Shown: positions 1-27,829, numbered from the stretch's first letter. The stretch is 54,288 nt of DNA from Minisyncoccota bacterium (GCA_025450175.1 JANWHY010000008.1:1-54288); one strand, 5' to 3'. The notes: a model not told the origin generated them from the sequence alone. Numbers and translations are program-made.

Positions 1-1935
<1,935 letters not shown>

Positions 1936-4780: not shown

Positions 4781-4884
4781 ATATGATCGCAATAATACTT
4801 AAAGAAATGATACATACGAATCTAAACAAGAACTTGAAGAAGGTCTTATCGAAATATCTCATACATTAATTATATAGGCATAAG

Positions 4885-4909
4885 AAAAACCCGCCAGAGG
4901 CGGGTTTTT
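4885..4909 (-). terminator. Rho-independent terminator of the large surface-protein gene
   Basis: aaaaacccgcc-agag-ggcgggttttt is a symmetric A-tract/stem/T-tract structure. A TATAAT hexamer (4869-4874, minus strand) follows 10 nt later. Confidence 0.75.
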
Positions 4910-4949
4910 CTTTCTCAGACTAGGGCTGAGACCCTAAGTAATCCAGGGA

Positions 4950-7161: not shown

Positions 7162-7779
7162 TTAAGCAAGACTGTACCTGCTCCAACGCTTCTCACCCAT
7201 CCGCTTCAATAACCCAAGAGTTACCATGCTCGAGAGCTCCCTCTGTACCGTTTTCTCCGAGCATCCAGAGATTAGTGGGGTTATGTCCTTTATCATTACC
7301 TCCTTTTTCCGCTTCAGAAGGTTGATAATTACGCTCTGCCTATTATTCTTCTTAACTGAAACTACGCCAAATTCCTTTAACACAGGCTTCTCCACAACTG
7401 AGTCTTTTACAAAATTGTCTTTTAGCAAATTCGATTCGACAGGTTTAACTTGTCTAGGATTCTCAGCTAGCGAGGGCATTAACAGTGGCAAAGGACTTTT
7501 AATCCCCGCCAAATCTTCAAGGCTAAGAAGTTCTTTATTTAGAATTTCATAATTAGATTCAGAGACTAGGCCATTTGTTTTTGCAACGACAAAAAGTGAA
7601 GATACTTCCTTTATTATAGAGACTTTGTCTTTAAAGCTATTAGAAATTAGGTTAATAGATAGCTCTCTTAACCTCCATTTTACTGGTTCTTCATTAGTAA
7701 AAAAGTTAGTTATAAAATATATAGCCGAAGCCAACTTTTCTGCCCTATTTATAAAATTTGTCTCATAAGCTCTGTCCAT
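7162..7779 (-). CDS. Winged-helix (DeoR/MarR-like) DNA-binding protein
   Basis: 205 aa. The C-terminal IKDITPLISGCSEKTVQRELSSMVTLGLLKRMGEKRWSRYSL matches the wHTH pattern. The N-terminal half is helical and of unknown function. A TTGACA (7826..7821), 17-nt spacer, AATAGT arrangement lies upstream. Confidence 0.6.
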   Translation of the reverse strand: MDRAYETNFINRAEKLASAIYFITNFFTNEEPVKWRLRELSINLISNSFKDKVSIIKEVSSLFVVAKTNGLVSESNYEILNKELLSLEDLAGIKSPLPLLMPSLAENPRQVKPVESNLLKDNFVKDSVVEKPVLKEFGVVSVKKNNRQSVIINLLKRKKEVMIKDITPLISGCSEKTVQRELSSMVTLGLLKRMGEKRWSRYSLA

Positions 7780-7958
7780 GTCGTTTAGATGTCTCTTACT
7801 ATTCCTTATATTGTCCTTTATGTCAAGGCAAGTCCATTATGGGTCTAAGAGACAAATTTTGCAATAGCCTCTTAAATTTCTTACTTATTTAAGATACCGA
7901 ATGGATACAGGAGGTGGACAACACTCTCGTGTTATTATTGAGGAAACATCACAAATTT

Positions 7959-13461: not shown

Positions 13462-14229
13462 CTAGACTAACATACGCTCGGCATTCTCGGCAAGGGCTCT
13501 ACGGATCCCTTCTTCATCCTCGCCCCGTATAGCCGCAATCCTCCTCACTACCTCTACCACGTAGCTGGGTTCACACCTCTTCCCTCTATAGGGTATGGGG
13601 GCTACATAGGGTGAGTCTGTCTCGGAGAGGATCATGTCTATAGGCGCATTCTTAATAACCTCATCATAATCGCTGGTGAAAGTGATTACTCCAGTGAAAG
13701 AAGTGGTGAATCCCATCTGCCAAAATCTCTTAGCAATTTCTAGAGAACCAGCAAAGAAGTGCACATTGCCGCGGAGCTTCTCCCCATATTCCTTCTTCAA
13801 TAGCTCAAGAATTTCTAGAATCTCTTGGTAAGCATCGCGAGCATGGATCATGAGTGGTTTACCGTGGGCCACGGCAAACTCTATCTGAGCCACAAACAAC
13901 TTCTTCTGCCTCTCATAATCCTCTTCTTTTTTGGCATGGTAGAAATCTAAGCCACACTCCCCTATGGCCACAACCTTGGGATGTTTTACCAACTCTTCGA
14001 ACTTATCTGCCTCAAAACTTTCCACCTTATCCACGGGGTGAACCCCGATACATGCATAAATTTCTGGATATTGGTCTGCCAACTCCACTGCCCTTTTGGA
14101 AGACTCGTAATCTGTCCCCACAACAATAGTATGCGTCTCACTTTCCCTCAATCTCTCGATAACTTGGTCTAGGTCTTGCTCGAAGTCCCGTGTATTAAGA
14201 TGAGAGTGTATGTCGAAGTATTTAGGCAT
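13462..14229 (-). CDS. TatD-family metal-dependent hydrolase/DNase
   Basis: FDIHSHLN, GECGLDF, MIHARDA and ETDSPY motifs. Confidence 0.88.
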   Translation of the reverse strand: MPKYFDIHSHLNTRDFEQDLDQVIERLRESETHTIVVGTDYESSKRAVELADQYPEIYACIGVHPVDKVESFEADKFEELVKHPKVVAIGECGLDFYHAKKEEDYERQKKLFVAQIEFAVAHGKPLMIHARDAYQEILEILELLKKEYGEKLRGNVHFFAGSLEIAKRFWQMGFTTSFTGVITFTSDYDEVIKNAPIDMILSETDSPYVAPIPYRGKRCEPSYVVEVVRRIAAIRGEDEEGIRRALAENAERMLV

Positions 14230-15646
14230 TGATGCGTGGGAAAAGATTTTCAGGTTTCTTTAAATCTTCTAAACTACTTTTAATGACTTCCGATGTTTTG
14301 GGCATTATGTAACGAAGTAGATGAGCAATTTCATAAAGATTAGTACACAAGTCAGCCACGATATTGACTGCAATTTCATGATTAGTTTTATATTTTTTGT
14401 ATGGCTCTTCGTCCTGAATCTTCTTATCCGTTTTTTTAATTAATTCCCAAACATGATTCATATATTTTTGAATATCGAAATCTTTAAAATAATCATAATG
14501 AATGGTATGTACTGAATCAATAGTACTAACACCATAATTATTAGCCATTGTTAAAACACGTGATACCAAATTACCCAAGCCATTTGCCAACCCTGATTCA
14601 TACCATTCATCTAGCCTCTCCCAAGTTACATCAGTATCCTCAAAAGAATTTATATGTCTAAGTAAAAGATAGCGGGTGGCATCAACCCCATATTTCTCTA
14701 CTAACTCATTTGGACTTATGACATTACCTAAGCTCTTACTCATCTTCTGCCCTCTAGAGTTAATAAAACCATTTATTATTATTTGATATGAGTTGGGAAG
14801 TCCTGCCGACATAAGCATAGCCTGCCACATTGCTGACTGTTGCCTTAGATTGTCCTTGCCAGCATATTGTGTGGGAATTCCTTCTCGCCAAAATTTTGTG
14901 AAATTATCCTCATTTTGAGGCCAATCTAGTGTCGAGATATAGCTTACAAGTGCATCAAACCATACATACATAACATGCTCAGAGTCACTTGGTACTTCCA
15001 CTCCCCAGGGCATTTTTGACTTAAGTCTAGAAATACTAAAATCCTCCAGTCCCCTCTCAACAAATGCTTTTATCTCGTTATATCTGGAGTCTGGAATAAC
15101 AAAATTAGGATTAGATTTATATAGATTTAAGAGCTTGTCTTGATAATTTGATAATTTAAAAAAATAATTTTCTTCCTCTCTCTCTTCTATCTCTAGAAGC
15201 GGATGGAGAACGCAATGACCACTTTCAAGTTCGGAATCTGTTTTTTCCAATTCGCAACCAACACAATATTTTATTTTATATAATTTCTTCTCTATATCTT
15301 TTTCACATCTTTTCCAAAACTCTTGTGCTGCTTTTATGTGCTTCTGGTCAGTAGTACGAATGAAGTGTACTTCTGGATCAATATTTAATAGTTTTATTAA
15401 ATCTCTAAATTTTTCAGAATGATCATCTACAAATTTTTGAGTTTCGATTCCTTCTTCTTGGGCTTTTTTAAAAATTTTTGATCCATGCTCATCTGTTCCG
15501 GTATTAAAGAATACTTCTTGTCCAGAAAGTTTTTTATATCGAGCTATCACATCAGCACGCACAAGCTCCATAGCAAAACCGATATGTGGTTCTGCATTAA
15601 CATAAGGCAGAGTTGTGGTTATATAGAAACTTTTTTTATGAGTCAT
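14222..15646 (-). CDS. metG: Methionyl-tRNA synthetase (core enzyme, no C-terminal tRNA-binding domain)
   Basis: LPYVNAEPHIGFA (HIGH-type) and KMSKSLGNV motifs. The start is set at MTHKKSFYITT (ATG 15646), overlapping the upstream stop by 11 nt. The gene is visibly AT-rich. Confidence 0.92.
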   Translation of the reverse strand: MTHKKSFYITTTLPYVNAEPHIGFAMELVRADVIARYKKLSGQEVFFNTGTDEHGSKIFKKAQEEGIETQKFVDDHSEKFRDLIKLLNIDPEVHFIRTTDQKHIKAAQEFWKRCEKDIEKKLYKIKYCVGCELEKTDSELESGHCVLHPLLEIEEREEENYFFKLSNYQDKLLNLYKSNPNFVIPDSRYNEIKAFVERGLEDFSISRLKSKMPWGVEVPSDSEHVMYVWFDALVSYISTLDWPQNEDNFTKFWREGIPTQYAGKDNLRQQSAMWQAMLMSAGLPNSYQIIINGFINSRGQKMSKSLGNVISPNELVEKYGVDATRYLLLRHINSFEDTDVTWERLDEWYESGLANGLGNLVSRVLTMANNYGVSTIDSVHTIHYDYFKDFDIQKYMNHVWELIKKTDKKIQDEEPYKKYKTNHEIAVNIVADLCTNLYEIAHLLRYIMPKTSEVIKSSLEDLKKPENLFPRINA

Positions 15647-16700
15647 GACTCGCGCCTTGCGCAATTTTGCGCTCTTCGAAATCTGAGATCCATTCCATAA
15701 TAGCCGCGGCAACTGGTACAGAGATTACCACTCCGAGAAAGCCCGCTAAGGTACCACCAATTACTAAGGCCAAGATCGAAACCATTGGGGGTACACCTAC
15801 TACCTTCTTGACCACCAGAGGGTAGATCACATGACCCTCTACTTGCTGAATAACGACGTAGATTGCAGCGACGATAAGCATAGCCGACATACCCCCATCG
15901 ACATATGCAATGAAGAGTGCCGGCACAGCCGCAAGTGTGGCTCCAAAGAGAGGGATGAGTTCGAAGACTCCTGCGGCAAAGGATAGGAGGAGGGCATGAG
16001 GTATGCCTACTATAAGTAGGGCAATATATACCATCATCATCACAATAGCTGAGGAGATGAGTTGTCCCTGCATCCAGAGACCAATCTTGGTCTGAGAGCG
16101 CTTCCAGAGACCGATGACATAACCTTCGTACTTAAGAGGACTGATCATCTTCAAGAACTTACTGATACCATCTTCCTGTACCACGAGGTAGAAGGAGAGA
16201 ACCAAGATCAAGAGGAAGTTGAGTACTCCACCGAAGACGGTAGAAATACTTGAGAATACTCCTTGCGATAGGAAGGTGGTTATATTATTTAGATGAGTTC
16301 TTAATCCTCTAAGGACCGTGGGAGTATCAAGGCCTCCGAATAGATTCTGATCCTTGAAGATGTCACTAAGCACCCCGCCCTGACTAGCAGAGTTCGAGTA
16401 GATAGAGAGCGTGCGGATGAAGCTCGAGATCTCCCCGATCAAAGGCAAGAGAAGGAAGTAGAAGAGGCCAGCGAGAATGAGAGCCGTCACAATGTATACG
16501 AGTAGAATAATAGGTAGCCTTGGGATGCGTTTCGACTTCGCCCAGCGCGCGGCCGGCTCTATGGCGGAGGCGATCACGACAGCTGTAATTACTACTAGAA
16601 TAAATTCTCTTACCTGGAAGATGGCATAAGATAAGGCCACTATAGCCGCCAGTCGAACCCAGCTAGCTAGTGAGATATCGAGAATTTGTCGGTTATTCAT
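15636..16700 (-). CDS. AI-2E family transporter (PerM/UPF0118-type permease)
   Basis: 354 aa and polytopic, with an AI-2E-like arrangement and a conserved C-terminal PPMVSILALVIGGTLAGFLG segment. Confidence 0.75.
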   Translation of the reverse strand: MNNRQILDISLASWVRLAAIVALSYAIFQVREFILVVITAVVIASAIEPAARWAKSKRIPRLPIILLVYIVTALILAGLFYFLLLPLIGEISSFIRTLSIYSNSASQGGVLSDIFKDQNLFGGLDTPTVLRGLRTHLNNITTFLSQGVFSSISTVFGGVLNFLLILVLSFYLVVQEDGISKFLKMISPLKYEGYVIGLWKRSQTKIGLWMQGQLISSAIVMMMVYIALLIVGIPHALLLSFAAGVFELIPLFGATLAAVPALFIAYVDGGMSAMLIVAAIYVVIQQVEGHVIYPLVVKKVVGVPPMVSILALVIGGTLAGFLGVVISVPVAAAIMEWISDFEERKIAQGASHDS

Positions 16701-16715
16701 GAGTTTATGATATCA

Positions 16716-17984
16716 CTATTTGAAGGTGAGGACTTTTTTGATCTTTGCTTGATTAGTAATATCCCCTACTATTGCAAGATTCAACTTATCGTCTCTAAAA
16801 ATCTCTTTCGCGACTTTCATTACTTCCTTAGCTGTAACCTTCCTAATCTCTTTCTCAATCTGGGTGGGATTCTTCAATCTATGTGTAAGAACTTCTTGGT
16901 CAGCATAGAACTCCGCCAGAGCATCGGCAGTCTCAAGTCCCATATAAAGAGTTCCGACTCTTTGTTCCTTAACTTTATCTAACTCCTCCTTTGAGACTAG
17001 CTCTTGTGTAAGTCTTTTACACTCCTCCACCAGCACCTTAGTAACCTCTTCGGCGCGACTAGCATTTATTCCAGTAGATATCGCGAACAAACCATGATCT
17101 GTATATACGTCATTCTCTGCACGGACATAGTAGCAAGCCCCCATTTGGTCTCGCAGTCGAGTAAAAAGGCGCGAAGACATGCCCCTACCTAGAATTCCAC
17201 CTATTACATTTAATACTGGCAATCTCTTATTGTTGGCAGCAAAGCTCCTTAGAGCCATAACCATATGAGTTTGGTCGGTCTTCTTTTTCTCTATGAGTAA
17301 CTTCGGAGAAATCTGCTTGTCTTTAGTAGGAAGTTTAGGCGACTTATTGGCCCTAGGAAGAGACGAGAAATACTTCTTAGCCTCACTTACAACATCCTTC
17401 TCACTTACATCTCCTGCCACTACAAATAAGGTTTTACCAGCAACATAATGCTTATTCCTATAATTTACAAACTCATTTCTAGTAAACTTCTTAATATTAC
17501 TTGCTGGACCAATGACGGGCCTGCCTGCCGGTATATCTCCATAGACAAGTTTATAGAGTACTTCCCAAACTTTTCTCTGTGGAAGATCTTCGTACATACT
17601 AATCTCCTGGAGAATAACTCCTCTTTCTATCTCAAGATCTTTAGCTGGAACTGTAGGGTTAAGATACAGATCAGAAATTATCTCTGTTAACTTCTTGAAG
17701 TGCTTTCTAGAAGCTTTTGCATAATAACCAGTATATTCATTGCCAGTGAAAGCATTATTAGTAGCCCCCAGAGTATCAAGTTCTTTAGAAATTATTCCTG
17801 CTGAAGGTCGCTTCTTTGTACCCTTAAAACACATATGCTCCAAGAAGTGAGAGAGGCCATTCTGCTCTTTAGTCTCATAGTTAGATCCAGTCTCCACCAT
17901 TACCAGCACCATTACGGCTGGGCTCTTGGTGGGCACAGTAATCACTCTCAAACCATTTAGAAGTGTAGTTTTCTTAAATTTCAT
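16716..17984 (-). CDS. M16-family (pitrilysin/insulinase-like) zinc peptidase
   Basis: Inverted zinc motif HFLEHMCFKGT (HxxEH) and the two-domain M16 length (422 aa). Confidence 0.88.
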   Translation of the reverse strand: MKFKKTTLLNGLRVITVPTKSPAVMVLVMVETGSNYETKEQNGLSHFLEHMCFKGTKKRPSAGIISKELDTLGATNNAFTGNEYTGYYAKASRKHFKKLTEIISDLYLNPTVPAKDLEIERGVILQEISMYEDLPQRKVWEVLYKLVYGDIPAGRPVIGPASNIKKFTRNEFVNYRNKHYVAGKTLFVVAGDVSEKDVVSEAKKYFSSLPRANKSPKLPTKDKQISPKLLIEKKKTDQTHMVMALRSFAANNKRLPVLNVIGGILGRGMSSRLFTRLRDQMGACYYVRAENDVYTDHGLFAISTGINASRAEEVTKVLVEECKRLTQELVSKEELDKVKEQRVGTLYMGLETADALAEFYADQEVLTHRLKNPTQIEKEIRKVTAKEVMKVAKEIFRDDKLNLAIVGDITNQAKIKKVLTFK

Positions 17985-17998
17985 CCACCAACAATACC

Positions 17999-19162
17999 CT
18001 AACTGATAGCTTCTTTCAAATCTGCGATTTTTACTCTTTTTTGCTCACCAGTATCACGGTCACGGAGAGTAACCGTGTCATCTTCTAATGTGTCGAAGTC
18101 TACGGTGATACAGAATGGTGTACCAATCTCATCTTGGCGGCGGTAGCGCTTACCAATGTTGCCATTGTCATCGAACTCGAGATTTGGGATGTGAGATTTA
18201 ATACTGGAGAATACTTCACGAGCCTTGGAGACTAGTTCTGGCTTGTTTTTAAGAAGTGGGAAGACAGCAGCACGAATGGGAGCTATGTTTTTAGGAAGTT
18301 TAAGATATACACGCTCCTCTCCTCCCAACTTATCTTCTGTATAAGAAGAAGTAAGAACCGCGAGAATAGTGCGATCAACTCCGAGCGATGGCTCGATTAC
18401 ATGAGGAACCATTCGCTCTTGAGCCTCTTCGTCCAAGTAATCTAGACGATGATTCTTAAGATCGAAGTCTGTCCGATATGCTAAGCCCCAAAGTTCCCCT
18501 CGACCAAATGGATAATCAAATTGAAAATCGATAGTCCTCTTTGAGTAGTGGGCTCGCTCTTCGTCGGGAACATCGAACTCGTGTGCTCGAATACCCAACT
18601 CCTCTGCGAAGCTGTTCATAATCTTCCTCCATATATCAAAATACTTTTCCCAGTCGGCCTCTTTAATAAAGTATTCTACTTCCATTTGCTCAAACTCTCT
18701 TTGCCTGAAGATAAAATCTCGAGGGGAAATCTCGTTTCTAAAAGCTTTGCCGATTTGCGCAACCCCGAATGGAAGTTTTGGATGATGAGAGTCAATAACA
18801 TTCTTAAAATCTACAAAAATTCCTTGGGCGGTCTCTGCGCGCAAGTGACTTGTTGTCGCATCCTCACCTGTACCCACTTGGGTTTTAAAAATTTCATTCC
18901 CAAAGTTTGCGACATGACCCGAAGCTTCCAAAACTTTTGGATTACTAATAATAGAGGTGTCGGTAGCAAACATATCTTCTCGGTCGAAAATAAATCTTTG
19001 CTTCCATAAATACTTTATATTTTCTTTTAAGATTACCCCGTAATGCCCATAGTTCCAGAAGCCAGCAAAGCCTCCATAAATTTCTGAATTAGGATAAACA
19101 AACCCCCGCCTCTTACAGAGAGATACGATCTTTTCCATTGAATCTAGGGTTTTGCCAGACAT
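17999..19162 (-). CDS. glyQS: Glycyl-tRNA synthetase (alpha2 type), unusually short
   Basis: The N-terminus RRGFVYPNSEIYGG..GFWNYGHYG, motif 2 FRNEISPRDFIFRQREFEQMEVEYF, motif 3 GVDR and a C-terminal anticodon-binding domain are all present. At 387 aa it lacks the usual insertion between motifs 1 and 2. Confidence 0.88.
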   Translation of the reverse strand: MSGKTLDSMEKIVSLCKRRGFVYPNSEIYGGFAGFWNYGHYGVILKENIKYLWKQRFIFDREDMFATDTSIISNPKVLEASGHVANFGNEIFKTQVGTGEDATTSHLRAETAQGIFVDFKNVIDSHHPKLPFGVAQIGKAFRNEISPRDFIFRQREFEQMEVEYFIKEADWEKYFDIWRKIMNSFAEELGIRAHEFDVPDEERAHYSKRTIDFQFDYPFGRGELWGLAYRTDFDLKNHRLDYLDEEAQERMVPHVIEPSLGVDRTILAVLTSSYTEDKLGGEERVYLKLPKNIAPIRAAVFPLLKNKPELVSKAREVFSSIKSHIPNLEFDDNGNIGKRYRRQDEIGTPFCITVDFDTLEDDTVTLRDRDTGEQKRVKIADLKEAIS

Positions 19163-21087
19163 TACTGCACCACTATATCATCCCCTTGGATAAATGCCGG
19201 ATCACCAACGAGGCGCGTGGTAACTGGAGGGTTCGTCGCAGAGACAACACTACCACTCGAAGAATCTTTGCCAGTGAGACTAATACGATCTATGAGTACC
19301 GGGGTTGTGCCCACCTGGCCAGCGGTCGGAGTAAGTTCTACCTGGAAGGCAAGCTCCTTAGCTGCCGAGGAGAAGCCTGTGCCAGAAGGGAGATTACCAA
19401 TAGCCCAGGTCAGAGTATTGCTTCCTGAATCGTATGTGATGTTCTCCCTACTTGTCGCTGGTACTCCAAGCCACTTCACATTGGGCCCTAGTCTCGCTGT
19501 AACCTTGGCATCCGCAATATCACCTTGGGTGTTGCCTATGTTGAAGACGATACTATAAGTGGTGGTCTCCTTAACTTTCGGCGGCTTGGGACCGTGGTTG
19601 GCAAATGGCCCGAGAGAGTACAAGGACTTCGAGGTGAGGTTAACTTGAGAAGAGATCTTGATCTTCCTGGTAATATGAGTGGTAACCGACTTCTCACCAC
19701 CCTGATCCACCGGCAAGCCACTAGCAGTAATATCGAGAAGGATCTCAGAGTTATTGCCCGAGAGGGCTGTGGCAGGTAGAGAGGCGAAGATGAGCGTGAC
19801 TTCTCCTGAAGCTCCAGGCACAAGCTCTGGGGCGCCAGAGATATCTCCTATGGACCAGGTTGCTTTAGAACTTGATTGGTCGTATATACCCTGATTACCC
19901 GCTCTTACCGAATTCTTATCCAAGGCACTACCAGATAGAGTGACCTCCACCTTCGGATTCAGTAATTTGTCTGGCAAGTTGTTACTGAGGTTGAAGGAGG
20001 CGCTAATCTCCCGAGCCGCAGGAGCAAGATAGGTCTCAGAATTCTCTCCATTGATACGTACAGCGAGACCTATGGCCGAACGATTGATAGCTATAGTGTT
20101 GAGGAGAGAGGCCACAGGGATCTTGAGGTTCGGCGACCCACTCCCGTCGGAGACACCCACGTAGAAGCGGAAGGTTCTCTCCTCCTCGTTTTCTCCAATG
20201 ATCCGCCCACGTATAATAATTTTCTTCTTATCCCCCGGAACAAGGTCCCCCAATGTCCATAAGTTATTCTCCGTCACTGCTCTCGGCTCTGCACCACTTA
20301 CCGTGTAACCGTATGGATACTCAGCCTTCAATACAACATTCTTCAAGACATCGGTAGCGTTCATATCGACATTCACCTCCGTCGTAAACTCTTCTCCAGA
20401 AGTAATAGTGTTGGGCGCATTGACAGAAACAGTGAGAGGTGCGCTACCTAGAGCAATTTCATAAATCTTATCTTTATAAAACTTAGCATTAGAACCCTTA
20501 ACCTTGTACTCGACCGAGAACTTGATCTCCTTGGTCTCTCCAGTAGTCCCAAGTATAACCATCCTTACATCTCTACTCGCTTCTCTCCCCGCCTTGATCA
20601 CACCCAACTCTTCTTTGCTAAATGTCAGAGCTTCGCCCGTATTGGTAGGGTTCCTCGCACCTGTGGGGTAATAGATAGAGAGATTAGCAAGCTCAAGATC
20701 AGCATTGTTGGTATTGGTGACACTTACTCCTAGGTCGAGTACCTCTCCTGCAGCAATGGTCGTGGGCCCGAGGATGCTAATATCCACATTTTTCGACGAG
20801 ATAAAGTTTGTCCCACCCATGAAGATATACCCAGCTGCTGCTATCGTCGCGACGAAGAAGATTACCGCTACGATAAAAACCTTCCTCATAAAGGGGTTGG
20901 GTGGAGATACCACCCGTTCGTGGCGGAGCATCTCGTTCAATTCCGGGCTGTGCCAACTTTCTGCCACATCCGGCGAGTCTACTGAAGAGTCGGCCCGAAC
21001 CTGAGTACGCTTATCCGTAGGATCTTCGTAGCGAGTACGCGAATTCAATTTGTCATTGAGCCTATCGATTCTATCCTCTCCTTCCAT
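19162..21087 (-). CDS. Membrane-anchored protein with repeated Ig/CARDB-like beta domains
   Basis: 641 aa. A charged cytoplasmic N-terminus is followed by one TM (VFIVAVIFFVATIAAAGYIF) and then long T/S/G/N-rich beta repeats. No enzymatic motif was found. Confidence 0.6.
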   Translation of the reverse strand: MEGEDRIDRLNDKLNSRTRYEDPTDKRTQVRADSSVDSPDVAESWHSPELNEMLRHERVVSPPNPFMRKVFIVAVIFFVATIAAAGYIFMGGTNFISSKNVDISILGPTTIAAGEVLDLGVSVTNTNNADLELANLSIYYPTGARNPTNTGEALTFSKEELGVIKAGREASRDVRMVILGTTGETKEIKFSVEYKVKGSNAKFYKDKIYEIALGSAPLTVSVNAPNTITSGEEFTTEVNVDMNATDVLKNVVLKAEYPYGYTVSGAEPRAVTENNLWTLGDLVPGDKKKIIIRGRIIGENEEERTFRFYVGVSDGSGSPNLKIPVASLLNTIAINRSAIGLAVRINGENSETYLAPAAREISASFNLSNNLPDKLLNPKVEVTLSGSALDKNSVRAGNQGIYDQSSSKATWSIGDISGAPELVPGASGEVTLIFASLPATALSGNNSEILLDITASGLPVDQGGEKSVTTHITRKIKISSQVNLTSKSLYSLGPFANHGPKPPKVKETTTYSIVFNIGNTQGDIADAKVTARLGPNVKWLGVPATSRENITYDSGSNTLTWAIGNLPSGTGFSSAAKELAFQVELTPTAGQVGTTPVLIDRISLTGKDSSSGSVVSATNPPVTTRLVGDPAFIQGDDIVVQ

Positions 21088-21108
21088 AGTTGGCTTATTA
21101 TAACACTT

Positions 21109-21606
21109 TTATAAGTGGCTAGCCTCGATCCCCTTATTTATAGCGCGAACCAATTGTTTCTTGTCTAGTTTAAGATCCTCTTCGTCTAAGTAGCCTAAGT
21201 GGAAGAGTATCTCTGCTACTAAGCGAGTCTCGAAGTCTTCACTCCCTTCTCTACCCTCTGTTAAAGAACGGCTCACAGTATCAAATAGTTCTGGATTAGC
21301 AGATTCTCCTTGCACCAATTTTTCTAGAAGTAAGAGTGGTCGAGCGGTATAAGAAGAACGTGGAATACTCTTGATAGATTCGACTGAAGTAGCTCGCCAA
21401 TACTCCTTCCCTCTTACAAGCGAGATGGAGGCAATAGATACAGGCTCGAGCGCTCCTCGGAGCTTCGACTCCTCCTTCCTCACACCTAATCCTTGAGCAC
21501 GGATAAGACCTAGGTCCCTTGTGAGTATATTGTATATCCTATCGGCCTCCCGCCATGGTCGGTAAGAGAGCACTATCCCACTTGTAGAATAAATATGGTA
21601 AGACAC
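21109..21606 (-). CDS. recO: DNA repair protein RecO (N-terminal OB domain form, short)
   Basis: GIVLSYRPWREADRIYNILTRDLGLIRAQGLGVRK matches the RecO N-terminus. At 165 aa it lacks the Cys-rich C-terminal domain. Confidence 0.75.
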   Translation of the reverse strand: MSYHIYSTSGIVLSYRPWREADRIYNILTRDLGLIRAQGLGVRKEESKLRGALEPVSIASISLVRGKEYWRATSVESIKSIPRSSYTARPLLLLEKLVQGESANPELFDTVSRSLTEGREGSEDFETRLVAEILFHLGYLDEEDLKLDKKQLVRAINKGIEASHL

Positions 21607-21607
21607 A

Positions 21608-24600
21608 CTAGATCAAAGTTATGTTTGTTGAATTCTCAATTTCTAATTTATATTTGGTGAATATTTCTTTATCTTCTTCGGGGAACTTGTAGTCCACCTT
21701 ATCTTGTGGCTTTAAGTTATTCTCTTTCCTCCATTCTTGAACCATACGGATAAGATCGCGGAGCTTACCCTCTTCCATAAGTTCGGTTGTGAGGTTTGTA
21801 TCGAGAAGTATCTCGCCATCTAACCTTCGGTCAGGTACCACCTCCTTAACATTCACCTCATCTCGAATTAGTTCTAAATATTCTTCGCCTAATTCTTGAT
21901 TCTTTATTCTTAATTCTTTTAGCGGTTGCCTTACTTTGATGTTGGCTCTCTGTCGGACTTCAAGAGCTAGGGAAACAATCTCTCTTGTGTCTTCCATATC
22001 TTTTAATAATTTTTTACTTCCTGAGTTAAAGAATGAGAAAATTGATCTTTTGGCTAGAGGCCAATCTGTTAGATGCACACTTTCTTTATCTTTATCCCCC
22101 TTAAGTCGACTATAAATATCTTCTGCTAAGAATGGCATAAAGGGAGCTATAAGTTTTGCTAACTCTATGAGAACACTACGGAGCTTGAATAGAGCCTCTG
22201 GCCTATTACGAGATCGACGCAGATACCAAGTGGAGAGATCCTCTACGAAGTCTGCAATGGGCCTCGAGGCTTTATCAAGTTCATAATTTTCTAGAGCCTT
22301 AGTTATTTCGCTCACTAGTTTAGTGAGCTTAGCATCAATCCATCTGTCGAGGGCATGAACAGGTGTGAGGTTCTTGGTGTTAGGTTCTAGATTATTTTTA
22401 TACAGTTCGTAGAAGCTCACTACGTTCTCGAGTCTATTAATAACTTTCTTCACAACCTCGTCTAGACCACTCTCTCTGAAGGCCAGGTCCTCTGCATGTA
22501 CTGCAGGAGATGAGACCAGGTAGTATCGAAGAGCATCAGCGCCGAACCTATCGAGCACCTCAGTGAGCTCAGGATAATTCTTGAGACGCTTACTCATCTT
22601 CTTCCCATCCTCAGCAAGGATGAGTCCATTCACCACCACCCGCCTGTATGGCGACTCATTGAAGAGTGCCGTACCAAGGACTAGCATGGTGTAAAACCAA
22701 CCTCGAGTTTGGTCTAACCCTTCGGCGATGAAATCTGCGGGACGGGAATCTCGAGCGGCACGTGAGGCGAAGGGCACTGAGCCTGAGTCATACCAAGTAT
22801 CGAAGACTTCGGGGATTCTCTTGTACTCTTCCCCATCTTTCTCTAACACCACTTCATCTATATAAGGACGATGGAGATCGAGCTCGTAATCTTCGTTGTG
22901 AGGTAGAGGGAGGAAGTTGAGAGATCGGAATTCTGCATTCTTCATGTCATCAAGCCGAGACCCTTCCTTCCTATCTATCATTGCGTACATCTCATCGAGA
23001 GATACGAACTTGCTTCCCGCAGTCATCACCCAGGCTGGCCCCCCGTGCGTAATGAAGAGGATCGTCTTATCTTTATACTTTTTCTCACACTCAGTTAAGA
23101 CACTCATCACCCGCATCTTGAGATCTCGGAAGGACTCATCCCCCTCTCTTTTCTTATCGTAGTACTCTTTAGTTTTGGGGAAACTCTCGTGATAATCTTT
23201 CCAAGTTTTGCCTTCAAATGAGTAGACACCGAACTCGTGGAGGGCCTCGTTTACTATTACTGCCTCATCAGGAAGTCCTAGGGCGTCCTGGACAATCTTG
23301 GCCGTCTCCCGCGTACGGACGAAAGGAGAGATGATGAGAAGATCAATACCCTTTCCTGTGAGCTCTTTGGCAGCATGGATTACCTGCTCCTTACCCTTCT
23401 CTGTTAACCCATCTGAGCCACCTGCCTTAGTGCTGATACTCCAAGTGAGATTGTGCTTAGACTCACCATGGCGCATTACCAGATACTTATTGTTAGCTTT
23501 CGAGTATTGTCTGAGTGTTTCAACAGAATCTACCAATATTTTCTTTGAGCCATCGGCACTCTCCCACACCGGCAGAGGGGTACCCCAGAAGCGAGAGCGC
23601 GATACAGCCCAGTCTCGTGCGCCCTCGAGCCACTTACCGAAGCGACCACTACGAATATCTTTAGGAACCCAACTAACCTTCTCATTGTTTCTTTCGAGCT
23701 TATCTTTGATCTCAGTCACTTTTACAAACCAGGAAGAAGCTGCGTAGTTCAAAAGTGGAGTATCACAGCGCCAACAGTGCGGATAACTGTGAGTTATCTT
23801 CTCTTTAGCAAACAAGAGATTCTTCTCTGCGAGATACTTAATGATCTTAATATCTGTAGCCTGGTGGTCATCTCTAGGCTTCACAGGCTCCCCTGCAAAC
23901 TCTCGTACCTCTAACTTGAAGCGACCATCTGTACCCACATGCTGGATAAGAGGTAACTTCTCTTTGAGAGAGAGTTGGTAGTCATCTTCTCCAAAGCCTG
24001 GTGCGATATGTACAATTCCCGTACCCTCCTCACTGGTTACGAAGTCTGCGCCGTACACTTGAGCCTCCTTGAGGTAATAATCGAAAAGAGTTTTATACTT
24101 TTTGCCCAGCAGATCCTGACCTTTGTAACTGTCTATAATCTCGTATTCCTTATCTTTAAGAGATGCGAGTCGAGATTCGGCAAGGATCAGGAATTCATCC
24201 TCTACCTTCACTTTTACATAATCCAATTCGGGATTTACAGCTATAGCCACATTTCCAGGAAGCGTCCAGGGAGTAGTAGTCCACACTAAGAAAAAGGTTC
24301 TAGGCTCATCTACCATCTCGAACCGCACGTATACAGAAATATCGGTAATATCTTTGTAGCCTTGATTTACCTCGAAGTTTGCAAGCGTCGTTTCGCAATG
24401 AGGACACAAGTGCATCGACTTGAATCCTTTATATACCAGACCCTTGTCATATAGAGTCTTGAAGGACCACCACACACTCTCGGTATAACTCGAGTCCATG
24501 GTCTTATAAGCATTATCCATATCAATAGAGCGCCCCGTGCGCGGGATGATCTCTTTCCAATCTTTCTCAAAAGTAAGGACGCTTGCCCGAGCTCGCTTAT

Positions 24601-24937
24601 TGAACTCTCCAATACCGAACTTCTCTATATCCTTCTTGGTCTCAAGGCCCAGCTCTTTCTCCACCAAGTTCTCGATAGGAAGACCGTGACAGTCCCAGCC
24701 CCATCGGCGAGGCACATGGTAGCCTCGCATAGTTTTATAGCGAGGGATGACATCTTTCACAGTGCCAGGCAGTATGTGGCCGTAGTGAGGCAGGCCAGTG
24801 GCAAAAGGCGGCCCGTCATAAAATACAAACTCCTTCCCATTCTTAGTTTGCCGAAGAGTCTTCTCAAAAATCTTATTCTCCTGCCAAAACTGGAGAATCT
24901 TCTCTTCTTTTTTAGCTCTTTCAGACTTTTCGGCCAT
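21608..24937 (-). CDS. ileS: Isoleucyl-tRNA synthetase (type 2) with an inserted histidine-phosphatase domain
   Basis: HYGH (aa 51-54), CP1 editing region, WCISR-like DWAVSRSRFWGTPLP and KMSKR (aa 780-784) identify IleRS. An insertion occupies aa ~484-680 (listed as a separate feature and finding). Confidence 0.93.
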   Translation of the reverse strand: MAEKSERAKKEEKILQFWQENKIFEKTLRQTKNGKEFVFYDGPPFATGLPHYGHILPGTVKDVIPRYKTMRGYHVPRRWGWDCHGLPIENLVEKELGLETKKDIEKFGIGEFNKRARASVLTFEKDWKEIIPRTGRSIDMDNAYKTMDSSYTESVWWSFKTLYDKGLVYKGFKSMHLCPHCETTLANFEVNQGYKDITDISVYVRFEMVDEPRTFFLVWTTTPWTLPGNVAIAVNPELDYVKVKVEDEFLILAESRLASLKDKEYEIIDSYKGQDLLGKKYKTLFDYYLKEAQVYGADFVTSEEGTGIVHIAPGFGEDDYQLSLKEKLPLIQHVGTDGRFKLEVREFAGEPVKPRDDHQATDIKIIKYLAEKNLLFAKEKITHSYPHCWRCDTPLLNYAASSWFVKVTEIKDKLERNNEKVSWVPKDIRSGRFGKWLEGARDWAVSRSRFWGTPLPVWESADGSKKILVDSVETLRQYSKANNKYLVMRHGESKHNLTWSISTKAGGSDGLTEKGKEQVIHAAKELTGKGIDLLIISPFVRTRETAKIVQDALGLPDEAVIVNEALHEFGVYSFEGKTWKDYHESFPKTKEYYDKKREGDESFRDLKMRVMSVLTECEKKYKDKTILFITHGGPAWVMTAGSKFVSLDEMYAMIDRKEGSRLDDMKNAEFRSLNFLPLPHNEDYELDLHRPYIDEVVLEKDGEEYKRIPEVFDTWYDSGSVPFASRAARDSRPADFIAEGLDQTRGWFYTMLVLGTALFNESPYRRVVVNGLILAEDGKKMSKRLKNYPELTEVLDRFGADALRYYLVSSPAVHAEDLAFRESGLDEVVKKVINRLENVVSFYELYKNNLEPNTKNLTPVHALDRWIDAKLTKLVSEITKALENYELDKASRPIADFVEDLSTWYLRRSRNRPEALFKLRSVLIELAKLIAPFMPFLAEDIYSRLKGDKDKESVHLTDWPLAKRSIFSFFNSGSKKLLKDMEDTREIVSLALEVRQRANIKVRQPLKELRIKNQELGEEYLELIRDEVNVKEVVPDRRLDGEILLDTNLTTELMEEGKLRDLIRMVQEWRKENNLKPQDKVDYKFPEEDKEIFTKYKLEIENSTNITLI
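22898..23488 (-). other. Histidine-phosphatase (PGAM/His_Phos_1-like) domain inserted within ileS
   Basis: YLVMRHGESKHN (R489, H490), LLIISPFVRTRETA (R541/R543), NEALHEFG (E564/E568) and LFITHGGP (H631). Confidence 0.75.
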
Positions 24938-24966
24938 ATTTAGTTTAATATTATCAAAAATGAGTA

Positions 24967-24994
24967 GGCCCTGCTCGCGTACGCGAGCAGGGCC
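24967..24994 (-). terminator. Rho-independent terminator after gmk
   Basis: A perfect 28-nt palindrome, ggccctgctcgcgtacgcgagcagggcc, is followed on the minus strand by tactcattttt. Confidence 0.75.
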
Positions 24995-25005
24995 ATGACC
25001 TACCT

Positions 25006-25626
25006 TTAGGCAGCTACCGCAAAGGTAGCTTGGACTCGAGCCAGGAGACTCTCATTACGATAGGAGGGAGGAGTGTTGCTTCTGCTGAGAGAGAGGAAGG
25101 CGAAGAGACCCACCAGCTTCTCCACTGTCTGATCAACACTGTCGTTGATCAACCAGCAGTCGAAGAATGAGGCTTGCCGCATTTCCTCGTGAGCGGTTAG
25201 CAGGCGCCGTCGGATTTCACCCTCATCCTTCTCCCTTCCCCGCGCACGAAGCCTTCTTTCCAGTTCTGTCGAGGAGGGCGGGAGTAGGAAGATCGTATGC
25301 ACATCTGCACAAAGCTTCTGCTTAATCTGCTTTGCACCCTGAAAATCGATCTCTAGGAGGACATCCTCCTTTTTAACGAGCTCCTCAGTGGGCGTACCGT
25401 AGTAATTGCCATGAACCTCGGCCCACTCCGCGAAGCCGCCCAGAGTACACTTTTCTCGAAACTCGGCCGCCGTGCGGAAGTAGTAGTCTACCCCATCGAC
25501 TTCCCCCTCATTTGGAGAACGGGTTGTCCATGAGATGGCGAGGTGTAGCGGGGTATTGCGCCGCAACACCTTCTTGATTACTGTGCCCTTGCCTGCTCCA
25601 GCTGGACCGGAGATTACAAAAACCAT
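25006..25626 (-). CDS. gmk: Guanylate kinase (with a ~30-aa C-terminal extension)
   Basis: P-loop VISGPAGAGKGT, TTRSPNEGEVDGVDYYF and EIDFQGA motifs. The start is at MVFVISG (ATG 25626). The gene is GC-rich relative to its neighbours. Confidence 0.9.
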   Translation of the reverse strand: MVFVISGPAGAGKGTVIKKVLRRNTPLHLAISWTTRSPNEGEVDGVDYYFRTAAEFREKCTLGGFAEWAEVHGNYYGTPTEELVKKEDVLLEIDFQGAKQIKQKLCADVHTIFLLPPSSTELERRLRARGREKDEGEIRRRLLTAHEEMRQASFFDCWLINDSVDQTVEKLVGLFAFLSLSRSNTPPSYRNESLLARVQATFAVAA

Positions 25627-25666
25627 ACCGACCCCCTCTCTTGTTCGAACGTCTCTTACCAACTTA

Positions 25667-27232
25667 TCACATCTTTTCAAGTGCAGGAATACCAAGAATA
25701 TCTAAACCATTTTGCATCACAATGTTAAAAGCTTGTACTATTGCGAGGCGGTAGGGAGACTCCTTATCGTCAGAAATTATTTGTTCGTGTGCATAGAAGT
25801 TATTGAAGCTTGCCGCAAGCTCCGTGAGATAAGTAGCGATGTAGTGAGGGGCATACTCCTTCCCCGCCCTCTCTACCACCTCTGGGAACCTGTACAAGAG
25901 TCTTTCAATCTCATGTGTGTTTTCTCGAGGAGCACTGGAGTCTGCCTCCTTATCTGCCTTTTCTAAAATAGAGTTCGATCGTGCGTAAGCATATTGGAGA
26001 TACACTCCTGAGTCCCCTTCAGTAGAAACAGACTTTTCTATATCGAAGACAATGTCATTACCTATGGCTTGTCTAAGGATCATATACTTGATGGCTCCTA
26101 TGGCTACTTGCTCATCGCCCTTTACATTCTCCTTAACATCTTCTATAAGCTCTTCTGCCGTAATCACATCTCCAGTCCTCGAACTCATCTTACCGGTGGG
26201 GAGTCGCAACATTCCATGTGGAAGATGTTTTGTAAGCTTCGCAAGATCTGGCAATACCTTACCCATAGCTTCTAAGACCACTTTGAAATATTCTCTGATC
26301 TCATTCCCAGTAACTATCACTGACAAATCGTATGGATAATATTCATATTTAATTTTGGCATTACCCAGATCCTTCGCTTCATAAGTAGGTAGCCCTAGCG
26401 AGTTGATAAAAACTCGTGTATGACTTCCTTTAAACACAATTGCACCCTCAGATTTCTCAAAGACTTCTCCAATATTATCTTCCACAATTTTTTTACCCAA
26501 CTCTCCTGTCTCTGATTCGAAGAAGTAATTATCAAATTTAGTACCAAGTTTCTTATAAATTTCTTCGAAAGATTCTAGGCTTGTCTTCCTACCCTCTTGG
26601 TAAATTTTGTTAATTTCTTGATCAGACTTGTCGTATATTTTCTTATTTATTTCTTCAATCTCTTTCTTTGCTTCTGGATTTTCTTCATAAGATTTGTTGC
26701 CAGCCACGTACGGATGTTCTTTAATACCTTGTTTTATAGCCCAGACTGCCTTAGCCACATGCAAACCCACATCACCCTGATAGTTTACTTGCTTTACTTC
26801 AGCCCCATTCCACTCGAATACTCGGGACAAAGTGCTACCAATTACATTGGGCATCAAGTGACCAATATGAAATTCTTTGAAAGGATTCGGGTCTGTGTGT
26901 TCGACCATCACCTTAAAGCCTTTGGCATGTGTGCTCTTACCAAACTCCTGAGCTTGCTCAGTAATTAACTCTAGAGATCTTTTGAAGAAATCTTTTGACA
27001 GATAGAGGTTGATAAACCCAGGCCCCGCTAGCTCTACCTTCTCAATTTCTTCTGGCAAATTTACTTCGATATATCGAAGTATTTCCTCCTTCTTATCCTT
27101 ATACTTTATGCCTACGTTTGTAGAATAGTCTCCCATCTTTAGATCAGTTGGATGCTCCACGACAAAGTCGCCCGGCTCCACCCCAACCGACTTCAGGGCT
27201 TCTTGTATTAAATTTTTTATTTTCTCTTGCAT
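25667..27232 (-). CDS. argS: Arginyl-tRNA synthetase
   Basis: 521 aa with EHTDPNPFKEFHIGHLMPNVIG (HIGH) and a DALR-type anticodon-binding C-terminus (YLQYAYARSNSIL). Confidence 0.92.
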   Translation of the reverse strand: MQEKIKNLIQEALKSVGVEPGDFVVEHPTDLKMGDYSTNVGIKYKDKKEEILRYIEVNLPEEIEKVELAGPGFINLYLSKDFFKRSLELITEQAQEFGKSTHAKGFKVMVEHTDPNPFKEFHIGHLMPNVIGSTLSRVFEWNGAEVKQVNYQGDVGLHVAKAVWAIKQGIKEHPYVAGNKSYEENPEAKKEIEEINKKIYDKSDQEINKIYQEGRKTSLESFEEIYKKLGTKFDNYFFESETGELGKKIVEDNIGEVFEKSEGAIVFKGSHTRVFINSLGLPTYEAKDLGNAKIKYEYYPYDLSVIVTGNEIREYFKVVLEAMGKVLPDLAKLTKHLPHGMLRLPTGKMSSRTGDVITAEELIEDVKENVKGDEQVAIGAIKYMILRQAIGNDIVFDIEKSVSTEGDSGVYLQYAYARSNSILEKADKEADSSAPRENTHEIERLLYRFPEVVERAGKEYAPHYIATYLTELAASFNNFYAHEQIISDDKESPYRLAIVQAFNIVMQNGLDILGIPALEKM

Positions 27233-27235
27233 AAA

Positions 27236-27829
27236 TTATCTAGCTCCCTTCTTACCTTTGACCCATTTAGCAGTTAGAGATCGGTGCCAGGCGTTTGAAT
27301 CTGCCTTTTGGATTTCATCCCACATTTTCTTAGCTGATTTAGTGTAAAGCTTCTTAGCTCTCACGGTAGGCCTATGATCCTTTTGCATACTAATAGCAGA
27401 GGAATCTCCAATTCTCGCTAGTTCTTTTAACTCGATATCTACATCAAGATTGTCTGCATCTTTAACAATCTTAGCTTCTAGAGACTCTCTTTTCTCATAT
27501 TCTTCCAAAACTTTTAGAGCCTCATTCCTAAGAGAGGTTTCTTCAAACATATGCTCCACTGCCAACTCTTCGTTTCGAGTCACATAATCTCGGTGCATGA
27601 AAGCAATATCTCCTGCTCTAGATTCTCCTAGATCATGGAGGAGGCACATTTTTAACACCTTATTTACATCCGCTTTTTCTTGTACGGCAATAGTCCATGC
27701 AATCATAGTCATGCGGAATATGTGCTCAGCAATATTCTGCACCCTACCTGTCAAAATCTGCTGCCATGCCCTTGGCACATTACGCAAAGACCCCATCTCA
27801 AACAGAAAGTCTATATCTCTTTTGGCCAT
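27236..27829 (-). CDS. HD-domain phosphohydrolase (YfbR-like 5'-deoxynucleotidase family)
   Basis: NIAEHIFRM...LLHDLGESRAGDI provides the H..HD..D metal ligands. The protein is 197 aa. Confidence 0.8.
   Translation of the reverse strand: MAKRDIDFLFEMGSLRNVPRAWQQILTGRVQNIAEHIFRMTMIAWTIAVQEKADVNKVLKMCLLHDLGESRAGDIAFMHRDYVTRNEELAVEHMFEETSLRNEALKVLEEYEKRESLEAKIVKDADNLDVDIELKELARIGDSSAISMQKDHRPTVRAKKLYTKSAKKMWDEIQKADSNAWHRSLTAKWVKGKKGAR

Follow-up and report, generated by a model that had tools for sequence, protein, structure and literature searches.

A histidine-phosphatase domain embedded in the isoleucyl-tRNA synthetase of a Minisyncoccota bacterium and of its relatives among Patescibacteria

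What does a phosphatase do inside an aminoacyl-tRNA synthetase (aaRS)? The question is raised by ileS, a gene on a 54,288-nucleotide stretch of DNA from a Minisyncoccota bacterium (GCA_025450175.1, JANWHY010000008.1:1-54288; the whole stretch is called the window here, and the features discussed are collected in Table 1), whose product, an isoleucyl-tRNA synthetase (IleRS), is interrupted by an additional domain. By sequence and by predicted structure this insert is an autonomous, catalytically complete branch-1 histidine phosphatase with a PGAM-type alpha/beta fold, and it is apparently active. A preliminary description of the window had proposed a phosphatase at this place, and we hold the anatomy and the evolutionary history set out below to be almost certain.

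Pfam finds His_Phos_1 (PF00300) nested between the two halves of tRNA-synt_1, the very arrangement that the preliminary description had predicted, and the excised insert matches the same model by itself (E 4.5e-29). In a MAFFT alignment of 115 insert-bearing homologues, R489, H490, R541, E568 and H631 are each kept in 113 to 115 sequences, and T512, G515 and S537 are also invariant or nearly so. These five catalytic residues had been named beforehand together with R543 and E564, and for the latter two the assignment did not hold, as the R543 position alternates between lysine and arginine among homologues and the E564 position is without conservation. Judged from the alignments, the catalytic residues of the insert are under strong purifying selection. 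The solved sequences nearest to the insert are PhoE/YhfR (E 1.8e-9), the phosphoserine phosphatase PspA and FBPase-2, with every catalytic position aligned. Within the AlphaFold2 (AF2) model of the whole protein the insert has a predicted local distance difference test score (pLDDT) of 92-97, with lower confidence at residues 650-669; modelled alone it reaches a pLDDT of 92.9 and a predicted template-modelling score (pTM) of 0.91. Foldseek aligns the latter model with PhoE (1h2e) at E 1.7e-12 and a template-modelling (TM) score of 0.69-0.70, and all of its structural neighbours are small-molecule phosphatases of about 200 residues, namely PhoE, PspA, GpgP, Rv3214, CobC, a riboflavin-pathway phosphatase and TIGAR; the protein phosphatases SixA, Sts and PGAM5 are not among the nearest sequence and structural relatives of the insert.

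With PhoE (YhfR), PspA and CobC-type enzymes (PDB 1H2E/1EBB, 4IJ5, 6E4B) the insert shares the fold (TM 0.69-0.77), the size, the helical cap, the RHG motif, the second arginine, the glutamate and the second histidine, yet these relatives stand alone and are basic, whereas the insert is nested in an aaRS, is acidic and is assigned to none of their subfamilies. Embedded domains are mildly acidic, with a median isoelectric point (pI) of about 6.0 against about 9 for stand-alone relatives. Scored on the whole protein with NCBIfam, membership of CobC (68.6 against a cutoff of 162.9), dPGM_arch (61.7 against 225), PspA (44.9 against 350) and SixA (28.6 against 74.5) was rejected, and the excised insert alone likewise falls below the cutoff of every named NCBIfam subfamily model. 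The cap region of the phosphatase (residues 576-604, window ~23126-23212) is the least conserved part of the domain. About 17% of homologues are without most of the cap (inserts of 141-168 residues), and their active site should therefore be more open.

The host enzyme belongs to type 2 IleRS, the eukaryote-like, mupirocin-resistant type. On the whole protein the NCBIfam model for ileS, TIGR00392, scores 876 bits against a cutoff of 621, followed by the type 2 models MupA and MupB; an acquired mupirocin-resistance IleRS of either kind was rejected (730 and 707 bits against an NCBIfam exception cutoff of 1900). The best-matching solved structures are of eukaryotic and type 2 IleRS (E 1e-215 to 1e-198), type 1 enzymes of S. 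aureus and P. megaterium matching more weakly (E ~1e-98). Pfam recognises tRNA-synt_1 in two halves with His_Phos_1 between them, Anticodon_1 and DUF5915, and the AF2 model of the whole protein (pLDDT 89.8, pTM 0.83) superposes on type 2 IleRS structures, P. megaterium IleRS2 (8c8v) being its best structural match. HYGH, KMSKR and the editing domain in connective peptide 1 (CP1) are intact, the last with the motifs WTTTPWTLPGN, GTGIVHIAPGFGEDDY and GTGIVH, so that by these signatures the protein is a type 2 IleRS with a complete domain set, as had been claimed. In domain order, HIGH, KMSKS, CP1 and C-terminal domain it resembles the type 2 structures (P. megaterium IleRS2, 8C8V; yeast and Candida, 8WND and 6LDK; TM 0.78, target-normalised), but in these CP3 comprises about 60-70 residues and is unsplit, while CP3 of the window protein is split by a 201-residue enzyme (PMC7955072, PMC7191050).

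The place of the split can be given closely. In the alignment with human cytosolic IleRS, residue 481 of our protein faces residue 494 and residue 687 faces residue 498; with P. megaterium IleRS2 the corresponding pairs are 478 with 477 and 680 with 480. Since the alignments with IleRS structures break exactly at the insert, some 200 residues stand in place of a loop of about three; the preliminary description had estimated about 190 extra residues and placed them at 22898-23488, which are residues 484-680 of the open reading frame (ORF). In accordance, the spacing between the starts of DWAVSR and LHRPYID is 46 residues in the insert-free orthologue P0035 and 245 in the window protein, and by sequence comparison the inserted segment has no counterpart in any solved IleRS structure. 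Yeast CP3 spans residues 459-526 and follows the CP2-3 linker ARDWNVSRNRYWG (PMC7955072), and the domain boundaries of the C. albicans enzyme are similar to those of yeast (PMC7191050). Because the yeast linker is equivalent to residues 440-452 of the window protein, the insert splits CP3 between its first helix (VETLRQYSK) and LDLHRPYID. The insert leaves through a linker that is conserved among homologues (F675 in 106, P679 in 111, H680 in 105 and N681 in 105 of the 115) and missing from insert-free orthologues. In about half of the insert-bearing family cysteines flank the insert (alignment columns 460, 463 and 700), in a CxxC...C pattern that recalls the zinc knuckle in CP3 of T. thermophilus; at these columns the window protein has S460, G463 and K700 (window 23555-23566 and 22835-22840, residues 458-461 and 700-701), and its CP3 metal site has probably been lost.

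Could the insert be an artefact or a recent arrival? Misassembly was rejected, given that the reading frame is unbroken across the insert and that the PF00300 architecture is shared by independent assemblies, namely 115 of the best 120 database clusters (those with names being Patescibacteria, Parcubacteria, Zambryski-, Nomura- and Pacebacteria) and, at the same site, at least 51 GTDB species-representative genomes of the Paceibacteria type. An intein or an excised mobile element was rejected likewise, as Pfam detects neither a Hint nor an intein domain and codon usage is that of the host gene: the GC content of the insert lies inside the gene's own range, and its codon usage differs from that of the remaining gene by a distance of 0.487, as compared with 0.494 +/- 0.059 for control windows of the same size. 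A recent horizontal insertion, against which the preliminary description had already argued, is rejected by the same codon usage and by the insert being ancestral to a large clade. The insert is missing from five close relatives (894-919 residues) among the best 120 clusters. Two of them are positional orthologues, because their gene order is the same as in the window; no stand-alone His_Phos gene lies within 10 kb of these two syntenic ileS genes, and no second His_Phos gene was found in the window. The backbones of the insert-free relatives are 71-74% identical to the query, which overlaps the range of the insert-bearing ones, and in a neighbour-joining tree of the backbone they fall at about three places within the insert-bearing clade. 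Given this nesting, the insert is ancestral and was cleanly lost several times, and it is therefore dispensable. Its rate of evolution is 2.2 times that of the backbone (median identities of 38% and 62%), and its distances track those of the backbone (r = 0.57), which fits vertical co-inheritance. One metagenome-assembled genome carries two partial insert-bearing ileS genes on different contigs (L011 and L028; JBBABV010000006 and JBBABV010000017), 71% identical over 400 overlapping residues, which are either two paralogues or genes of two organisms binned together.

The window protein is one member of a much wider family. With the insert as query, an exhaustive phmmer search gave 510 matches at E <= 1e-10 among 1.84 billion cluster representatives; 109 of the best 150 are IleRS, the remainder being either short fragments of IleRS or proteins of about 195 residues that stand alone, and no other aaRS or other large architecture occurs among these best 150 of 510, in a search biased toward relatives of the IleRS insert. 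A word-indexed search with the insert only returned nothing except stand-alone phosphatases (30-38% identity) and missed the IleRS inserts because the insert diverges too fast for shared 5-mers. Its best match, P0121, called as a stand-alone protein of 214 residues on a 1.6-kb contig from the Joint Genome Institute (JGI; L056), is in fact a frameshifted IleRS fragment with pieces of tRNA-synt_1 and Anticodon_1 downstream, and it ends in an APLPH exit linker; caution is therefore due with relatives of the insert that are called "stand-alone" on short contigs. Seeding a search with the two-domain protein P0250 led to a second large family, whose named members are Gracilibacteria, Peregrinibacteria and Peribacteria.

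Within these families four loops of IleRS are used, as determined by pairwise alignment to the insert-free P0035 and by motif landmarks; 15 Gracilibacteria-type proteins could not be classified by the landmarks and a few others were mislabelled, and key cases were rechecked by pairwise alignment. Site A, that of the window protein, lies in CP3 before DLHRP; site A' is the distal CP3 hairpin after DLHKHKID; site C lies between DxWFESGSMP and PADFIAEGLDQTRGWF; and site B is the loop that follows the first helix of the anticodon-binding domain and corresponds to residues 850-861 of the window protein. In relatives site B holds a second phosphatase or a kinase, and the insertions of P0266, P0250, P0207 and P0298 map there, after P0035 residues 648-658. 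Sites A, A' and C belong to the catalytic half of IleRS, around the KMSKS loop, and all four sites are within about 130 backbone residues of KMSKS. By landmarks, 38 Gracilibacteria-type clusters carry inserts at B only, 39 in the CP3 region, 5 at C only, 8 in combinations up to A+C+B, and 11 carry none; the classified CP3 copies split further into 18 at A and 17 at A'. Some proteins contain two to four His_Phos copies. The catalytic set R-H-R-E/D-H is kept in 273 of 276 full-length copies, while identity between copies inside one protein is only 29-36%. For 187 of 199 copies the nearest copy in another protein occupies the same site, identity being 37-45% within a site and 29-33% between sites; since copies cluster by site, each site carries its own old lineage. 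The neighbour-joining domain tree is star-like and does not separate independent capture from ancient intragenic duplication. P0150 (1161 residues, probably truncated at a contig end) has four His_Phos domains in tandem, three complete and catalytically intact and the fourth cut by the end of the protein. The array starts at position 198 of the tRNA-synt_1 profile as compared with about 270 for site A, and may represent a fifth insertion point or an odd assembly.

The Gracilibacteria/Peregrinibacteria/Peribacteria-type enzymes (P0290-P0374) are in-frame mosaics of up to about 1860 residues with one to three His_Phos domains. Further domains in these mosaics are GNAT acetyltransferases, P-loop kinases (AAA_33/AAA_18/Zeta-like), a serine hydrolase, a DUF559 endonuclease-like domain, an IS200-type Y1_Tnp and, once, tandem HAD_2 phosphatases (Table 1), and JGI names one relative 'isoleucyl-tRNA synthetase/phosphohistidine phosphatase SixA/...GNAT'. 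A profile of the kinase inserts of P0351, P0366 and P0372 matches best Pnkp1 of an RNA-repair complex (4xrp, E 3.8e-5) and next an adenylate-kinase-like protein (4cvn, E 7.4e-5), and one kinase insert matches L-seryl-tRNA(Sec) kinase (PSTK; E 4e-10, 39.6 bits against a cutoff of 290). We take the Pnkp1 and PSTK similarities as weak leads, not as family assignments. The kinase occurs in 5 of about 116 Gracilibacteria-type clusters, and Pfam finds none in the window protein, for which a polynucleotide kinase-phosphatase type was accordingly rejected. The GNAT companion has generic matches only. The neighbourhoods of multi-domain relatives are ordinary chromosomal regions, and no functional partner gene was seen near a stand-alone Patescibacteria homologue, near insert-free orthologues or near the multi-domain relatives examined. 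One locus, L059, which encodes the HAD-bearing IleRS P0350, has a gene for a PemK/MazF endoribonuclease immediately upstream of ileS and a gene for a CCA-adding enzyme (PolyA_pol plus HD domain) about 2 kb further upstream (the two neighbour genes at 7536-7928 and 4417-5775), a single anecdote.

Table 1. Features of the window IleRS and domains of selected relatives (conservation counted among 115 insert-bearing homologues; copies, full-length His_Phos copies)
Feature	Residues	Window position	Strand	Evidence or remark
ileS, type 2 isoleucyl-tRNA synthetase, stop codon included	1109 aa	21608..24937	-	ORF and TIGR00392
HYGH (class I HIGH motif)	51-54	24776..24787	-	H51 and G53 invariant in homologue alignment
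CP2-CP3 linker ARDWAVSRSRFWG	440-452	23582..23620	-	equivalent to yeast 453-ARDWNVSRNRYWG-465
Inserted module, histidine-phosphatase domain with short conserved linkers, CP3 subdomain, site A	482-682	22892..23494	-	alignment with insert-free orthologues
His_Phos_1 (PF00300)	486-648	22994..23482	-	Pfam, E 1.4e-27, 97.1 bits against a 21.7-bit cutoff
Nucleophile motif R489-H490-G491	489-491	23465..23473	-	115, 115 and 114 of 115; aligns with PhoE RHG
N496, phosphate-pocket Asn	496	23450..23452	-	111/115; 264/276 copies
R541, second phosphate-binding Arg, SPFVRTRETA segment	541	23315..23317	-	115/115
E568, general acid/base	568	23234..23236	-	113/115
R609, conserved Arg	609	23111..23113	-	115/115
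H631, second catalytic His, FITHGG segment	631	23045..23047	-	115/115; 276/276 copies
Exit linker FLPLPHNE	675-682	22892..22915	-	conserved; missing from insert-free orthologues
LDLHRPYID, native CP3 sequence restarts	686-694	22856..22882	-	
KMSKR (class I KMSKS motif)	780-784	22586..22600	-	K780 and K783 invariant
Site B loop, start of anticodon-binding domain, empty in window protein	850-861	22355..22390	-	pLDDT ~55
Anticodon-binding domain (Anticodon_1)	864-1007	21917..22348	-	Pfam, E 7e-28
C-terminal DUF5915, typical of type 2 IleRS	1011-1104	21626..21907	-	E 1.3e-10
P0351: His_Phos; P-loop kinase	566-731; 784-889			Pfam
P0366: DUF559; His_Phos; AAA_33/Zeta-like kinase	294-399; 773-951; 1188-1320			Pfam
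P0372: Y1_Tnp; His_Phos; GNAT; kinase	346-470; 734-899; 1025-1106; 1258-1358			Pfam
P0340: serine hydrolase; His_Phos	562-734; 872-1017			Pfam
P0302: DUF559; His_Phos	572-675; 848-1004			Pfam
P0350: two tandem HAD_2 phosphatases at site C, without His_Phos				Pfam

Given this anatomy, what would the embedded enzyme be for? The preliminary description had offered its own guesses at a function as speculation. The reading that we favour, with a probability of about 0.4, sees in it a phosphomonoesterase of the small-molecule type that is carried by IleRS and coupled only loosely to aminoacylation. A PhoE/PspA/CobC-like branch-1 domain entered CP3 of the housekeeping type 2 IleRS of a Paceibacteria-type bacterium long ago, where very short, conserved linkers hold it, and it has been inherited vertically since. 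From what is known of the family, phosphomonoesters would be hydrolysed in a ping-pong reaction, in which His490 would attack a phosphate held by R489, R541, N496 and H631, E568 would protonate the leaving group, and water would free the phosphate from phospho-His490. IleRS would be a constitutively expressed carrier, coupled by co-expression or co-localisation without precise geometry, and the likely substrate would be a small phosphorylated metabolite or a nucleotide. The function would be accessory, given up by some lineages, and would be one case of a broader tendency in Patescibacteria to equip a few permissive loops of IleRS with accessory phosphatase, kinase, GNAT and hydrolase domains.

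Several observations speak for a phosphatase of the small-molecule type: the nearest relatives of the insert (PhoE, PspA, GpgP, CobC, the riboflavin-pathway phosphatase, TIGAR and FBPase-2) are capped small-molecule phosphatases, the embedded domains are acidic, and P0350 has two HAD_2 phosphatases in the same loop region instead of His_Phos. Members of HAD_2 are capped and act on small-molecule substrates. That four different loops are used, each with its own old lineage, argues for loose coupling, and the low identity between copies that share a protein, given that nearly all copies keep their catalytic set, suggests several specificities, not one geometrically fixed reaction. The role is likely to be accessory and dispensable, since the insert was lost at about three places and the eleven Gracilibacteria-type relatives that carry none are likewise without it. 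We also count in favour that the companion domains of relatives are ordinary metabolite-modifying enzyme classes and that the insert evolves faster than the backbone. Other points weigh against the reading. AMP is the only obvious small phosphomonoester of IleRS chemistry, and its hydrolysis would be wasteful. Judged from the best 150 of the 510 matches, with 109 IleRS and no other aaRS, the association looks IleRS-specific, for which the Rosetta-stone principle predicts a shared pathway; the short conserved linkers and the confident overall model (pTM 0.83) suggest a fixed orientation; and the accompanying kinases appear closest to kinases of RNA or aminoacyl-tRNA, Pnkp1 and PSTK.

These last points lead to the main rival of the small-molecule reading, healing of the ends of tRNA(Ile), which we consider possible but doubtful. 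IleRS would provide the specificity for tRNA(Ile), and the phosphatase would strip a 3'-, 2'- or cyclic phosphate, or a pyrophosphate, from a CCA end damaged by nucleases or toxins, so that the tRNA could be recharged afterwards; in the kinase-bearing relatives the two activities would pair as in polynucleotide kinase-phosphatase. The IleRS specificity, the short conserved linkers with the confident model, and the position of sites A, A' and C in the catalytic half around the KMSKS loop all fit such a role, as do the kinase inserts of P0351, P0366 and P0372 nearest to Pnkp1 and PSTK, the HAD phosphatase in place of His_Phos in P0350, and the PemK/MazF gene directly upstream of the latter, with a CCA-adding enzyme nearby. 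Moreover, tRNA or aminoacyl-tRNA is the usual substrate of the catalytic domains that are fused to synthetases (CP1, YbaK/INS, LysX), the phosphatase of T4 Pnkp is of the HAD type, and tRNA(Ile)-specific tRNase toxins exist. However, we found no precedent in the literature for a histidine-phosphatase fold that acts on RNA ends, all nearest structural relatives act on small molecules, and the embedded domain is acidic. Four mounting points, one of them in the anticodon-binding domain, agree poorly with a fixed reach to A76. In their similarities the kinases fall well short of the family cutoffs, as the PSTK score illustrates, and the kinase itself is confined to those few clusters and absent from the window protein; RtcB, Rnl and Hen1 were not found in the neighbourhoods examined, those of insert-free orthologues and multi-domain relatives; and the HAD domains of P0350 are of the capped HAD_2 type and not of the PNK3P type. 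An extended form of the idea, an 'armoured' synthetase, we regard as unlikely: tRNA(Ile) or Ile-tRNA(Ile) bound to IleRS would be the substrate in cis of the embedded phosphatases, which, in relatives jointly with PNK/PSTK-like kinases, GNATs and hydrolases, would heal or unblock 3' ends damaged or modified by nucleases and toxins of hosts or competitors.

Quite unlikely, in our view, is a role in self-defence, in which the domains would inactivate a phosphorylated or adenylate-mimicking inhibitor of IleRS, or would reverse an inhibitory phosphorylation of IleRS itself, for example of a KMSKS serine by a HipA-like kinase. The companions do belong to the classic antibiotic-modifying classes (acetyltransferase, phosphotransferase, serine hydrolase), all four sites flank KMSKS at the distance given above, and dispensability suits a conflict-driven accessory function. 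Among GNATs, MccE and RimL are examples that detoxify mimics of aminoacyl-adenylates, and the KMSKS motif of aaRS is a site of phosphorylation by HipA and HipT. Yet we know of no phosphorylated natural inhibitor of IleRS, and histidine phosphatases need a terminal phosphomonoester, so that cleavage of an adenylate-type diester or a phosphoramidate is improbable; furthermore, the structural neighbours are metabolite phosphatases and not protein phosphatases, no PADLOC defence model matches the insert, and the GNAT matches are generic.

Still less probable is product clearance, by which AMP or pyrophosphate from the synthetic site would be hydrolysed and aminoacylation thus pulled forward, the adenylate-kinase-like inserts of relatives serving the same end by converting AMP to ADP. 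AMP is the sole phosphomonoester of the IleRS reaction, nucleotide-like substrates are within the range of PhoE- and CobC-type enzymes, the kinase inserts weakly match the adenylate-kinase-like 4cvn, and the insertion sites surround the KMSKS loop, the gate of nucleotide release. Clearance, however, leaves unexplained why IleRS alone among aaRS should need it, and insert-free orthologues manage without; the conversion of AMP to adenosine would be costly for a nucleotide scavenger, pyrophosphatase activity is atypical of the fold, and the GNAT and serine-hydrolase companions do not fit. Finally, loss without gene disruption and the lower model confidence at residues 650-669 would suit an insertion with a structural or regulatory role and no catalysis (a pseudo-enzyme or a ligand sensor) or an artefact (misassembly or an intein-like element), explanations that we find exceedingly improbable, the former in the face of a catalytic set retained almost without exception despite deep divergence, the latter in the face of an unbroken frame, the 115 clusters and 51 species genomes, host-like codon usage and the lack of a Hint or intein domain.

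The surroundings of ileS in the window are a housekeeping block, with ArgRS, Gmk, IleRS, RecO_N, a DUF11 protein, a class II aaRS, an M16 peptidase, an AI-2E transporter, MetRS and TatD. Window 13462-27829 forms a conserved block with four aaRS genes that is syntenic with insert-free relatives (L053, L054). Its DUF11/CLIPPER surface protein has 641 residues, and its RecO homologue consists of the N-terminal domain only (RecO_N, 165 residues). The listed TTG start of the guanylate kinase ORF (window 25006-25695, minus strand) overlaps the end of argS by 29 nucleotides; as the residues before 26 lie outside the Pfam match, translation probably starts at an internal methionine just before the P-loop (MVFVISGPAGAGKG).

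Both parts of the protein, type 2 IleRS and branch-1 histidine phosphatase, are known, and their combination is without description in the literature that we found: full-text searches returned no IleRS or other aaRS with an embedded histidine phosphatase, which bears out what the preliminary description had stated. Two candidate precedents were set aside, PMC6429109, which proved irrelevant, and SbzA of the SB-203208 paper, which is IleRS-like and without a fused GNAT. The nearest recognised case is the NCBIfam family NF040702, 'isoleucine--tRNA ligase, N-acetyltransferase domain-containing' (ileS_w_GNAT), in which curators have already noted an IleRS with an extra enzyme domain; GNAT-bearing IleRS relatives often carry a phosphatase too, but the window protein is without GNAT and scores 346 bits against a cutoff of 1999. 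More generally, extra modules in loops or at termini are found in many synthetases, such as the leucine-specific domain of LeuRS, INS/YbaK of ProRS, the eukaryotic WHEP, GST and EMAPII domains, and LysX, a LysRS-MprF fusion. Some of these modules serve functions beyond aminoacylation. The known catalytic ones act on aminoacyl-tRNA, and we know of no phosphomonoesterase among them. The joining of kinase and phosphatase in P0351, P0366 and P0372 recalls T4 polynucleotide kinase-phosphatase, Pnkp1 and PFK-2/FBPase-2, the FBPase-2 being a His_Phos domain fused to a P-loop kinase and itself among the matches to the insert; in contrast to these bifunctional enzymes, the window protein has no kinase, the similarities are weak, and the domains of the relatives are placed inside a synthetase.

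The aaRS are among the most conserved and best-studied enzymes, and their catalytic additions have so far been editing or transfer modules. A conserved phosphatase active site inside an essential synthetase, present in hundreds of uncultured lineages, in four loops and in up to four copies, points to an unstudied translation-linked activity or, at least, to an unusual deployment of accessory enzymes in very small genomes. Were the 'armoured' arrangement true, IleRS would become the first synthetase to repair the tRNA that it charges, and the histidine-phosphatase fold would gain its first RNA-end phosphatase. More broadly, should the substrate be tRNA, the domain would represent a new form of quality control for tRNA or of defence against toxins; should it be a metabolite, IleRS would be a bacterial scaffold for domain accretion, parallel to the synthetases of eukaryotes.

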